Assembly: GCA_965203555.1 (NCBI GenBank)
Contig: CBDBCY010000004.1
Location: 1,216,001 to 1,280,000 of the forward strand
DNA from: Acidimicrobiia bacterium
GTDB lineage: Bacteria > Actinomycetota > Acidimicrobiia > Spongiisociales > ZC4RG35
DNA length: 64,000 nucleotides
Direction: 5' to 3'
The translations under genes were made by a program, and so were the position numbers. Positions 48,836 to 53,873 of the stretch are shown in pieces. The notes below the pieces were generated by a model, which searched no databases, was not told where the DNA came from, and saw nothing but the letters and a program-made list of their open reading frames with translations. The stretch's first letter is position 1, and every line of letters starts with the position of its first letter.

Positions 48836-49513
48836 TCAGGGCGAGCAACGCCTTTCAGAAGCGTAACCGGATAGCCTTTCCCAACTTCCGCTGTCCTTCA
48901 TTGTGAAATTGGGGGGCGCCGTGCGGCGGGCAATGGCTACGGCGTTGCAACTCAAACATTTCGCCACGTACCTCATCTCCTGTGGGTCGATGCCCGCCTT
49001 CTGCTCGAAGGGAGTCAGCCGATGTCCCAGTTGCCGCGACTGTTCAGTCAAATAGTCCGGGACCGGGCTGGGGACTCGGGCGGGGGCGGTGTCGGGTGTG
49101 CGCCCGGGAACGCGGATGCGGCGCACCTTTCCCGTCGAGGTTCCCGCCGTTGGACGCCGCTCAGAAGGCTTGGTCCGGGATCTGGCAGGCGATTCCGTGA
49201 GCGCTTCCGACGGCGCCGGCGCCACCGATGAATGCCCGCTCGACTCTACAGGCGCCGCAGTCGGTTGCTCATCCGGCTCTGTGGTGGCCAAGGGCAGAGA
49301 CGGAGGAGCAGGGGCAGGCGCTTCGGTCCTTTTCTGTCCTACTCCGCGACGCAGCCGGGAAAAGACCCTCTTGACCCGCCGACGGTCGGGCCTTTCGGTG
49401 TCTTTTCGGAGGCGTTCCCCTCTTCTTGCCTTCTTCCCGAATGGGAGAATGCCCTGCTCCAATTCCTCGGGGGTGGGGACATCAAAGTCGGGAGTGGCGT
49501 CTCGTCGACTCAT
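48836..49513 (-). CDS. Hypothetical protein: basic/Pro-rich disordered region plus C-terminal putative Zn-binding domain
   Basis: ATGA overlap with Hsp70 gene stop; GH...CLSC...C candidate ligands. Confidence 0.7.
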   Translation of the reverse strand: MSRRDATPDFDVPTPEELEQGILPFGKKARRGERLRKDTERPDRRRVKRVFSRLRRGVGQKRTEAPAPAPPSLPLATTEPDEQPTAAPVESSGHSSVAPAPSEALTESPARSRTKPSERRPTAGTSTGKVRRIRVPGRTPDTAPARVPSPVPDYLTEQSRQLGHRLTPFEQKAGIDPQEMRYVAKCLSCNAVAIARRTAPPNFTMKDSGSWERLSGYASERRCSP

Positions 49514-50847
49514 GTCCAAATCTCCTGTGCGACCACTCCCAAACCTTTGGCGACGGTTGTGAACGGTTCCCGGTCACGTATCTTGTCTGCTCCGAAAACC
49601 CGTTCCAGCATCGCTGCAAAGGAGAACAAACGCGATGAGCCTCCGGTGCGGAACACCGCCGTGACCTGGTCCGGGCCTATTCCCACTCTGTCCAACGCTT
49701 TGAGCATCTGATTTCGGATAGTACGCAGGTAGGGCTCGGTTAGCCGGTCGAGGTCGGTTCTGTTCAGTGGTATCGACAAGTCTCCCTGTGGAGGATGAAA
49801 CTCGATGGAGGTCATCGACCTCTCCGACAGTCTGATCTTCGCCCTCTCTATGGCCTTGTGAAACGGATGCGCCTGGCCCCCTCTCACAATGGCGTCCACC
49901 AGTGCGCCGGAACGCGGATTCAACTTTCTCAGTTGATTGAGGACATAGAAAGTGTGCCTGTTGGTCATCAAACCCCGGAAGCCGCTCCAACTGCCCAGGC
50001 TGTCTCTGAACCAGGTCGGTATGGACGGGTGGTCAAGCCCCAGTGAGGGCGCCACCTTGTCACGGAAGATCAACTGGTCGAAGATCGAACCTCCTATTCT
50101 GGCGCCTTCCATGCTCACCACCTCTCCCTCCTGACCGTCGACCTCCACCACCGCTATGTCGAACGTCCCTCCCCCGAAGTCGACAGCTACCGCGTAACCG
50201 TCCGGAATCACCGTATCGAGAGCGGCGGCGGCCGGCTCCGGATACAACTCCACCTCTGAGAATCCGGCTTCGTGTGCGGCCTCCTTCAGCCTGTCCTCCG
50301 CCAGTTGCTGCAGTTCTTCGAAGTCTTCCTCGGCGGTCCCGAAAAAGGCCACCGGATGTCCTATAACCACTCTGGTCACGTCCTGACCGGTTAACCGATC
50401 AGCGCGGCGTTTCAAATCTCTGATACCGATGGAGGCCAGTTGCTCCATGGTGAAGTCGATCGACCACGAATGGGTACTGCGGAAGAGATCGTTGGCGAAT
50501 TCGCTCTTGAGTTCACCCATCAGTCGTGAATCGAGACAACCTCCCCCGCGCTCGTACTGGCGGCAGTCACTACCCCACTTCCAACCCCTTCGACCATGTC
50601 TCTCCCGGACCACCAGAGCACAGTGCTCGCAACTGGTGCGCTGGTCACCGGTGATCGTGAACTGCTCCACCGCCCGGTCTCCCGCCATTCGAAGGCCATC
50701 TCGATGCAGATAGGTAATTGAAGGGACCGAGTTGGGCATGCCCGCGTCGATACCCAACCGCAACACCTCCACCCGGTGGGGATAGGCCACAGAGATGGAA
50801 CTGTTGGTCGTACCGTAGTCGATACCGTAAGCGAGAGGACTGTTCAC
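49510..50847 (-). CDS. Hsp70-family ATPase, YegD-like, with Cys-rich insertion
   Basis: GIDYGTTNS, VVIGHPV.F, EPAAAA, VDFGGGTFD, TGGSS, VAKGL; 445 aa with no substrate-binding domain. Confidence 0.88.
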   Translation of the reverse strand: MNSPLAYGIDYGTTNSSISVAYPHRVEVLRLGIDAGMPNSVPSITYLHRDGLRMAGDRAVEQFTITGDQRTSCEHCALVVRERHGRRGWKWGSDCRQYERGGGCLDSRLMGELKSEFANDLFRSTHSWSIDFTMEQLASIGIRDLKRRADRLTGQDVTRVVIGHPVAFFGTAEEDFEELQQLAEDRLKEAAHEAGFSEVELYPEPAAAALDTVIPDGYAVAVDFGGGTFDIAVVEVDGQEGEVVSMEGARIGGSIFDQLIFRDKVAPSLGLDHPSIPTWFRDSLGSWSGFRGLMTNRHTFYVLNQLRKLNPRSGALVDAIVRGGQAHPFHKAIERAKIRLSERSMTSIEFHPPQGDLSIPLNRTDLDRLTEPYLRTIRNQMLKALDRVGIGPDQVTAVFRTGGSSRLFSFAAMLERVFGADKIRDREPFTTVAKGLGVVAQEIWT

Positions 50848-53800: not shown

Positions 53801-53873
53801 CGCCTGTTTCTCCCCCGGCGACTCTCATCACCCGATCACCCACATGGAAGGTTTTCGACTCCGGTTTTGTCAT
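50844..53873 (-). CDS. SNF2-family helicase, RapA/DrmD-like (start may extend to 53930)
   Basis: [61 protein letters not shown]; RapA-like FD..LAL.REDLDF..GH.L; C-terminal coiled coil. Confidence 0.9.
   Translation of the reverse strand: [1009 protein letters not shown]

Follow-up and report, generated by a model that had tools for sequence, protein, structure and literature searches.

The SNF2 ATPase RapA (HepA) of E. coli, a housekeeping transcription factor, is not known to act with Hsp70-type partners. Eukaryotic SNF2 remodellers such as INO80, SWR1 and SWI/SNF have actin/Arp modules bound to their HSA helix, and bacterial SNF2 helicases serve in several defence systems, as DrmD in DISARM, BrxHI and BrxHII in BREX, DpdE in Dpd, HmaA in Hma and ZorD in Zorya. 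Hsp70-family proteins also occur in predicted immune operons. Excerpts of one study describe the type III CoCoNuT proteins CnuD/CnuCD, in which an Hsp70-like nucleotide-binding domain (NBD) and substrate-binding domain (SBD) with degenerate ATPase motifs are combined with HEAT-like repeats, encoded with or fused to the McrBC homologues CnuB/CnuC (PMC11090510); excerpts of another describe GTPase-tubulin-Hsp70 systems as predicted conflict systems with an Hsp70-family component (PMC7159879). Here, we analyse a locus that joins a SNF2 ATPase to an Hsp70-like ATPase. It lies on a 64,000-nucleotide stretch of an Acidimicrobiia bacterium genome (contig CBDBCY010000004.1, positions 1,216,001 to 1,280,000; hereafter the window) and consists of three minus-strand genes, hereafter the trio, which encode a RapA-like SNF2 motor (gene 1), an NBD-only Hsp70-like protein (gene 2) and a small basic protein (gene 3).

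The three genes recur together as one cassette, and we consider that this cassette is probably, though by no means certainly, an undescribed conflict module directed against phages or other mobile DNA. A first-pass annotation of the window knew of no described system with this trio. Our literature search, which covered the full text of papers, returned none linking a SNF2 ATPase and an NBD-only Hsp70 in one operon, and PADLOC (PADLOC-DB 2.0.0, which dates from 2023) holds no such system; the trio thus appears to be undescribed, although it may be listed elsewhere as an unnamed candidate.

The genes and their junctions in the window are as follows:

50844..53930, minus strand: gene 1, RapA-like SNF2 ATPase (open reading frame (ORF) and Pfam)
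49510..50847, minus strand: gene 2, NBD-only Hsp70-like ATPase, 445 amino acids from a GTG start (Pfam HSP70)
48836..49513, minus strand: gene 3, basic low-complexity protein, 225 amino acids from an ATG (ORF and 13 homologues)
50844..50847, minus strand: GTGA, gene 1 stop overlapping the gene 2 GTG start (read directly)
49510..49513, minus strand: ATGA, gene 2 stop overlapping the gene 3 ATG (read directly; GGAG 8-9 nucleotides upstream)

Both 4-nucleotide overlaps, and the three minus-strand genes that they join, are as the first-pass annotation had reported them. Judged from ORF coordinates, the overlap between gene 1 and gene 2 is also present in loci L004, L091, L093, L094, L096, L105, L107, L109 and L110, and the trio is one translationally coupled cassette. 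Gene 1 can start at the first ATG (53930; 1028 amino acids) or at a second one (53873; 1009 amino acids). The latter is more likely, because homologues align from about residue 26-28, and the residues of the N-terminal barrel are counted from it below.

The three genes recur together

We searched for the trio in other genomes and in metagenomes. The closest match among genome contigs, L004 (Hsp70 59% identical), contains all three genes in the same order, and in L005, a Nocardioides metagenome-assembled genome (MAG; Hsp70 34% identical), a SNF2 C-terminus lies immediately upstream of the Hsp70 gene. When the full Hsp70 alignment was used to scan neighbourhoods, generic Hsp70 genes were picked, mostly in dnaK loci, and only L004 and L005 were relevant; that scan was discarded, and its dnaK loci later served as the control for the flank comparison. 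We then scanned metagenomes with a sub-alignment of the Hsp70 insert region, which carries a family-specific pattern, and obtained 30 loci with Hsp70 identities of 40-60%. For the upstream test, at least ~100 nucleotides before the Hsp70 start were needed, which left 24 loci, the other six of the 30 being cut by a contig end or split. All 24 have a SNF2 homologue (43-55% identity) directly upstream on the same strand, ending within a few tens of nucleotides of the Hsp70 start, and ~21 of them are distinct. The same SNF2 gene precedes the Hsp70 gene in L004, L005, G067 and G122. In L108 (344-2428), the Hsp70 gene is split by ~2.1 kb with long inner ORFs of 579 amino acids (plus strand) and 468 amino acids (minus strand), neither with a Pfam family.

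Gene 3 is less easily followed. BLAST with the window protein found it, among the trio loci, in L004 and L091 only. Nevertheless, 24 of 26 metagenome loci have a basic ORF with its N-terminal motif at the Hsp70 stop, either overlapping or abutting it; a 25th, in L092, has Phe at one motif position, and the single miss has only 79 nucleotides of downstream sequence. Written as a regular expression, the motif matches 24 times across the 30 loci (464,690 six-frame codons), each time at the Hsp70 stop. Note that the expression was written after examples had been seen, and that four groups of duplicate loci, defined by gene 3 sequence (L087=L088, L097=L100, L098=L099=L115 and L094=L114), leave ~20 distinct sequences. 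The two reading frames can also be fused: among cluster representatives, P0144 and P0148 are in-frame fusions of the Hsp70 to a gene 3-like tail, and the P0144 tail has both the N-terminal motif and the C-terminal H/C/C/C domain described below.

A more distant variant of the arrangement is found in G067, where a SNF2-Hsp70 pair (41% and 36% identity) whose Hsp70 has no Cys insert is followed by a different, highly charged protein of 302 amino acids. At this locus (L086, G067:C1:758000-777999, ~6177-19773), the 302-amino-acid protein is followed by two further unknown proteins, of 394 amino acids (with a Gly-rich hydrophobic stretch) and 439 amino acids, and the flanks hold a DUF4357 protein, an unknown 600-amino-acid protein and an 893-amino-acid PLD-like protein.

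Overall, recurrence across dozens of unrelated contigs places the trio arrangement far beyond chance. The neighbourhood search that the first-pass annotation had proposed as a check of co-occurrence thus shows the genes nearly always together (SNF2 in 24/24 loci, gene 3 in 25/26).

Gene products and their nearest described relatives

Gene 1 has clear SNF2 motor domains in Pfam (SNF2-rel_dom, 80.5 bits; Helicase_C, 76.1 bits) and a RapA_C match (PF12137, 24.1 bits) below the gathering cut-off of 26.8. Mean per-column identity in an alignment of 16 sequences is 66%, and motif VI is invariant in all 16, as are the Walker A motif and the DEAH box. We modelled gene 1 with AlphaFold from 16 homologues (mean predicted local distance difference test score, pLDDT, 69). 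In the model, a small N-terminal beta-barrel precedes two motor lobes with a helical insert; a helical and poorly defined region follows (residues 650-810), then a small beta domain (820-868) and lastly a long helical hairpin (887-991). The features of gene 1 map to the window as follows:

53715..53834, minus strand: N-terminal small beta-barrel of gene 1, residues 14-53, five short predicted strands (AlphaFold pLDDT 71-80)
53481..53495, minus strand: Walker A (G-L-G-K-T) of the SNF2 motor, invariant in 16/16 sequences (D124-T131)
53187..53198, minus strand: DEAH box (motif II) of the SNF2 motor, D226, E227, A228 and H229 invariant in 16/16 sequences
50901..51215, minus strand: predicted C-terminal helical hairpin (coiled coil) of gene 1, helices 887-952 and 961-991 (pLDDT ~80-85)

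The closest described protein is RapA. Five E. coli RapA entries head the Foldseek search with the gene 1 model (E 6.9e-33 to 8.4e-25, over 1006-1100 columns), and the next matches are eukaryotic SNF2 remodellers at E 1e-18. The likeness covers the SNF2 core and the long C-terminal region, with 22% identity over ~1000 columns and 25-29% in the core. In VIA, the comparison with RapA gives Z 20.5-21.5, pairing model residues 92/102..1007 with RapA residues 155..968 at a large root-mean-square deviation that comes from domain placement. The N-terminal barrel (14-53) does not align to the RapA N-terminal domain in VIA, the aligned ranges starting at residue 92-102. RapA is also the best NCBIfam match (NF003426), with 337.1 bits against a cut-off of 576 and a best stretch that covers residues 75-408 only.

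These matches are the ground for a first alternative, in which the trio is an accessory, horizontally spread housekeeping function of RapA type in transcription or repair: under stress, the SNF2 motor would recycle or remove RNA polymerase that has stalled, or clear other proteins from DNA, with a dedicated Hsp70-like ATPase and a basic cofactor as helpers, and phages would play no part. RapA leads both Foldseek (E 7e-33 to 2e-31, the next remodellers following at 1e-18) and VIA (Z 21.5), and heads the NCBIfam list. On the other side, gene 1 stays under the cut-offs of the RapA equivalog (337 against 576) and of RapA_C, and the VIA scores of its motor core are nearly tied with those of the eukaryotic remodellers SRCAP, ISWI and Chd1 (Z ~20; 20.3 against 21.5). 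Gene 1 further differs from RapA in that it ends in the long hairpin, is rare rather than universal and is always coupled to an Hsp70-like gene. With the evidence of distribution and surroundings given below, we regard this alternative as unlikely.

The likeness of gene 1 to defence helicases is that of one SNF2 motor to another, set in many trio relatives within defence islands. Among the best 25 of 47 PADLOC matches, to which our PADLOC results for gene 1 refer, BrxHI reaches 347.6 bits in two partial stretches, DrmD 257, HmaA 237, DpdE 173 and ZorD 125, and these models match gene 1 as a generic SNF2 protein only; a PDC-type candidate made up of the helicase alone may lie among the remaining matches. 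The NCBIfam equivalogs of this group are missed widely (DrmD, 318.2 against 610 and 238.2 against 950 bits; DpdE, 227 against 500; ZorD, 54 against 1500), and all equivalogs in NCBIfam are missed; all NCBIfam and PADLOC matches lack full-length or cut-off support. The partner genes of those systems do not accompany the window trio either: its flanks contain no DISARM genes (drmA, drmB, drmC or drmMI) and no BREX genes (PglX, PglZ or BrxC). The trio would work most nearly as RapA or the SNF2 helicase of a defence system does, yet it belongs to no family that was tested.

Gene 2 has the Hsp70 (ASKHA) NBD fold and no substrate-binding domain. Pfam HSP70 covers residues 7-261, with profile positions 2-231 of 599 and a second stretch, i.e. 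the NBD only. The model is well defined (pLDDT 89; predicted template modelling score 0.88), and Foldseek returns the NBDs of DnaK, Hsc70 and BiP at E ~1e-22 and ~20% identity. In 24 aligned homologues, the phosphate- and adenosine-binding motifs (D223-D230, T401-G403) are invariant, and G8, D10, G12 and T13 are nearly so. A canonical Hsp70 of DnaK or HscA type was considered and rejected, as only the NBD is present and the NCBIfam scores are 89.5 against 648 bits and 84 against 620 bits, respectively. The YegD-type model (PRK11678) reaches 104.7 bits against 331. Gene 2 shares with YegD and with the DnaK/Hsc70 NBD the nucleotide-binding fold with intact phosphate and adenosine motifs, without a substrate-binding domain; it differs from YegD in that the model spans residues 134-444 only, the first 133 residues holding an invariant Cys4 insert, and in that it stands in an operon with a SNF2 gene. 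The insert is followed immediately by a T-H-S-W motif, invariant in the 24 homologues:

50536..50631, minus strand: Cys4 insert of gene 2, beta-rich and predicted to bind zinc, C73, C76, C95 and C104 invariant in 24/24 (short strands around the Cys residues in the model, pLDDT 76-78)

No PADLOC model matches gene 2, and a protein atlas search returned only generic "Hsp70 family" clusters, most often from Chloroflexota and Ca. Dormiibacterota. Another set of Hsp70-like proteins of 765-869 amino acids (P0207, P0212, P0216, P0221, P0244 and others) is separate, with ~30% identity to gene 2 across the whole NBD and ~350-420 extra residues that have no Pfam family in the three scanned. Pfam also found no extra known domains in the longer Hsp70-like representatives.

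Compared with the CoCoNuT and GTPase-tubulin-Hsp70 systems, as far as these are described in the excerpted sources, the trio shares an Hsp70-family ATPase within a predicted immune operon, and some trio loci adjoin McrBC. Those systems, in the same excerpts, keep NBD and SBD, have degenerate motifs and are tied to McrB-type or other GTPases, whereas the trio Hsp70 has neither SBD nor HEAT region, has invariant motifs and is partnered by SNF2, the link to McrBC being occasional. McrBC is absent beside the window trio; McrB and McrC both stand beside the trio in L097 and L104 only, and L005 has an McrB-like gene.

The pairing of a SNF2 motor with an ASKHA-fold partner recalls, by analogy, the HSA-actin/Arp modules of eukaryotic remodellers. 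INO80, SWR1 and SRCAP are among the structural matches, and the long helix of the motor might serve as a docking rod. The differences are that gene 2 is Hsp70-like and not actin-like, and that the trio helix is C-terminal, not N-terminal, to the motor.

Gene 3 encodes a protein of pI (isoelectric point) 10.5 with 19% Arg and Lys and 45% Pro, Ser, Ala, Gly and Thr. It matches no Pfam, NCBIfam or PADLOC family, and the protein atlas search gave nothing usable. Its 13 homologues lie on contigs whose lengths match those of Hsp70 matches. Invariant across these proteins are an N-terminal P-T-P-E-E-L motif, a basic stretch ending in G-V-G, a short Arg-rich motif and a C-terminal H/C/C/C domain with G163, H164, C186, C189, N202, W211, G216 and C223 (14/14 sequences):

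49457..49480, minus strand: N-terminal motif of gene 3, V-P-T-P-E-E-L-E, residues 12-19, P13-L18 invariant in 14/14
48839..49066, minus strand: C-terminal H/C/C/C domain of gene 3, putatively zinc-binding, residues ~150-225, invariant positions in 14/14

The H/C/C/C domain is confined to a close subgroup (window, L004 and L091) and to the fused P0144. At other loci, the gene 3-type proteins have 100-140 amino acids, or 335-428 amino acids with another C-terminal domain in L109 and L110, and all have a pI of 9.1-12.0. Aligned with hhalign, the two gene 3 subgroups share only a 24-column N-terminal stretch (probability 41%, E 2.8e-4). We accordingly do not claim full-length homology between the subgroups, hhalign supporting the N-terminal motif only. 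Judged from the sequences, the features that the whole family shares are position, composition, a short linear motif and a basic low-complexity body; a fold is not among them.

These results agree with the first-pass annotation for gene 1, described there as a SNF2 ATPase of ~1010 amino acids with a RapA-like segment and a terminal coiled coil (SNF2 Pfam domains, RapA_C below threshold, hairpin 887-991), and for gene 2, described as an NBD-only, YegD-like Hsp70 with a Cys insert (HSP70 NBD alone, PRK11678 below threshold, Cys4 invariant in 24/24). Its picture of gene 3 as a disordered basic protein ending in H..CxxC..C holds within the window subgroup and does not extend to the family.

Distribution and genomic surroundings

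The trio is rare. In the phylum of the window, the Hsp70 (E ≤ 1e-30) is present in 3 of 301 sampled genomes (G000, G067 and G122), and the C-terminal 328 amino acids of the SNF2 protein (E ≤ 1e-10) are found in the same three genomes, adjacent to the Hsp70 in each. None of three other genomes of the window's family has the Hsp70; the neighbouring periplasmic binding protein also has no match in three same-family genomes. In the class of the Nocardioides MAG, the trio-type Hsp70 occurs in 1 of 401 genomes, the MAG itself, and only 148 Hsp70 representatives are found at E ≤ 1e-30 among 1.84 billion cluster representatives. The G+C content of genes 1-2 (0.574-0.584) is below that of the window (0.621), with a larger contrast in L091 and L109, and G+C at third codon positions is 0.67-0.70 in the trio against 0.70-0.80 in its neighbours. 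From its rare and patchy distribution, its absence in the three other genomes of the family and its lower G+C content, it follows that the trio is an accessory, horizontally moving cassette and not a housekeeping locus. The fixed housekeeping locus that the first-pass annotation had named as the contrary outcome was not found, with only 3 of 301 genomes of the phylum carrying the trio. The same counts (3/301 in the phylum, 0/3 in the family) speak against the RapA-type housekeeping function, for which, moreover, at least seven other SNF2-type loci in the genome would be available; these loci lie on contigs C4 and C1 of the 3.4-Mb genome G000, with frames of 783-1148 amino acids, an unusually rich set.

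A mobile cassette could instead be cargo that serves the mobile element itself, in maintenance, anti-defence or as a transposition helper. The patchy distribution, the G+C content slightly below that of the flanks, the differing insertion contexts of the window, L004 and L091, and insertion sequence elements in or beside some copies are what this explanation would expect. In L087 (4953-6509, plus strand), the trio SNF2 gene is interrupted by a 518-amino-acid ORF with a DDE_5 transposase domain, and in L107 a DDE_5/DDE_Tnp_1 transposase follows immediately after gene 3. On the other hand, there is no match in 50,697 phage records (E ≤ 1e-10) and none confirmed in IMG/VR, and 72,556 plasmid records gave two matches only, at 25-27% identity and on megaplasmids or chromids. 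A tRNA search of the window found none, and no integrase or transposase is present among the window flank genes scanned. We therefore judge a mobile-element function very improbable.

In the window, the trio is placed between a short-chain dehydrogenase/reductase (SDR) gene and a branched-chain amino-acid ATP-binding cassette (ABC) transporter, and the flanks also include LysR, isocitrate lyase, DUF222-HNH and xanthine-dehydrogenase-like genes. The surroundings are thus metabolic and regulatory; the first-pass annotation had placed the trio amid unrelated catabolic genes. The DUF222-HNH endonuclease gene (46558-47796, plus strand) is separated from the 3' end of the trio by the SDR gene, at a distance of ~1 kb and on the opposite strand; no association with the trio was seen at other loci. 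A gap of 60 nucleotides (53931-53990) parts the SNF2 ORF from the final gene of the ABC-transporter operon, which lies upstream on the same strand. A promoter and terminator scan gave no promoter-like sites and three terminator-like sites, which did not exceed the shuffles. Co-transcription of the trio by read-through from the ABC-transporter operon is possible. The nearest relatives, L004 and L091, lie amid enolase, MoaA, flavoprotein, Ppx/GppA and transporter genes, so that window, L004 and L091 each present a different genomic context. These metabolic surroundings are a point in favour of the RapA-type alternative.

The more distant, soil-type relatives are placed differently, with neighbours that are overwhelmingly defence genes, which argues against that alternative. 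We compared the flanks of 20 trio loci (85 ORFs, 128 kb) with those of 10 dnaK-centred loci (85 ORFs, ~127 kb) using the same ORF calling. The trio flanks match 92 PADLOC families (E ≤ 1e-20) and the dnaK flanks one family with one ORF, a contrast that is qualitative, the dnaK control being from other phyla and the trio loci partly redundant through duplicates. Counted by flank ORFs, PDC-S68 is the commonest family (8), followed by MkoA and mad3 (2 each); DrmMI/type IIG, RT, PDC-S37, mad6, PD-T4-6, Cas1, OLD and HEC-06 have one ORF each. The PDC-S68 proteins next to the trio are full length (1358-1390 bits). Pfam identifies McrB and McrC ~200 nucleotides upstream of the trio in L097 and L104, with the McrB-like gene of L005 downstream, and GmrSD near the trio in L096, L109 and L092. 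In L092, a type IIG-like methylase and an OLD-like ATPase-nuclease lie upstream, and in L109 an MkoA-like helicase with an RNase_H_2 domain; in both loci, these upstream defence genes overlap the SNF2 start.

Several further proteins stand beside the trio in single loci: a 991-amino-acid protein with RNase III-like and dsRNA-binding domains (L094:10322-13297, plus strand), a 579-amino-acid Ser/Thr kinase fused to a Schlafen AlbA_2 domain (L093:1364-3103, plus strand) and, upstream of the trio, a full-length DUF6119 protein (343.6 bits; L105:1147-2847, plus strand).

The intimacy of some of these junctions suggests a further alternative, that the trio is a dependent add-on, a motor or sensor for adjoining nuclease systems (McrBC, OLD-type, MkoA-like helicase-nuclease or PDC-S68), and inactive alone. 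The trio has no nuclease of its own; it is co-directional with, overlapping and downstream of the methylase and OLD-like gene in L092 and the RNase_H_2 helicase in L109; it follows McrB and McrC at ~200 nucleotides in L097 and L104; and it adjoins PDC-S68 in 8 loci, ~6 of them distinct. Yet the partner varies by locus, PDC-S68 occurs in either orientation, the trios of the window, L004 and L091 have no such neighbour, and the tight overlaps within the trio are kept whatever the neighbours are. Together, these observations make a dependent add-on distinctly improbable.

We come back to the conflict module. An accessory cassette that often lies beside known anti-phage genes is, for that reason, probably an undescribed defence module. 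Several points weigh against it: the window's own flanks and those of L004 and L091 are metabolic; the flank contrast with dnaK has the limits stated above; the commonest neighbour, PDC-S68, is itself only a candidate system and has no mention in our full-text literature search; no nuclease, toxin or other effector domain was detected in the three proteins with Pfam, PADLOC or NCBIfam; neither gene 2 nor gene 3 is matched by a PADLOC model; among solved structures, the nearest is that of a housekeeping transcription factor, RapA; and the homology of gene 3 across subgroups comes down to the 24 columns aligned by hhalign. Neighbouring defence genes, for which the first-pass annotation had proposed an enrichment test, are seen among the distant soil-type relatives, from their PADLOC and Pfam flanks, and not in the window, L004 and L091. 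Its broader proposal of a nucleoprotein remodelling or anti-phage module fares similarly, being favoured by the neighbours of the soil-type loci and disfavoured by the flanks of the window subgroup and by the lack of an effector domain.

Candidate mode of action and significance

Both ATPases retain their catalytic motifs in every aligned sequence. If the trio is a conflict module, the three proteins may form one machine, in which the RapA-like SNF2 motor would track on duplex DNA, or engage polymerase as RapA does, and would displace or block proteins bound to invading DNA. The Hsp70-like NBD would be a second, nucleotide-dependent ATP switch bound to the motor, with its zinc-binding insert as a recognition surface. 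The gene 3 protein would take the place of the linker and substrate-binding domain of ordinary Hsp70s, docking through its N-terminal motif and contacting nucleic acid through its basic body and, in the window subgroup, through the putative zinc domain. Having no nuclease of its own, the machine would either hinder invading DNA without cleaving it or work together with the nuclease systems that it often adjoins. This particular division of labour among the three proteins is doubtful. Note that a complex prediction, in which the Hsp70 was combined with residues 650-1009 of the SNF2 protein and residues 1-150 of the gene 3 protein, neither supported nor disfavoured a complex.

A more specific proposal is that the SNF2 motor works as an obligate holoenzyme carrying an actin/Hsp70-fold ATPase on its long C-terminal hairpin, as a prokaryotic counterpart, by convergence or descent, of the SNF2-HSA-actin/Arp assembly, with gene 3 as a detached, nucleic-acid-binding replacement of the SBD. 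The whole would be an immune machine that, without nucleolysis, evicts proteins from invading DNA or traps them there. We consider it quite unlikely in this complete form.

If the trio does protect against phages, it would add to the known defence repertoire a system with two different ATPases at its core and no nuclease, and would give NBD-only, zinc-bearing Hsp70 homologues their first functional context. As a compact 5-kb cassette, it is easy to transfer and to mutate. For bacteria, so strict a pairing of a SNF2 motor and a protein of the actin/Hsp70 fold is unusual, and it prompts the question of whether regulation of this kind may exist outside eukaryotes.

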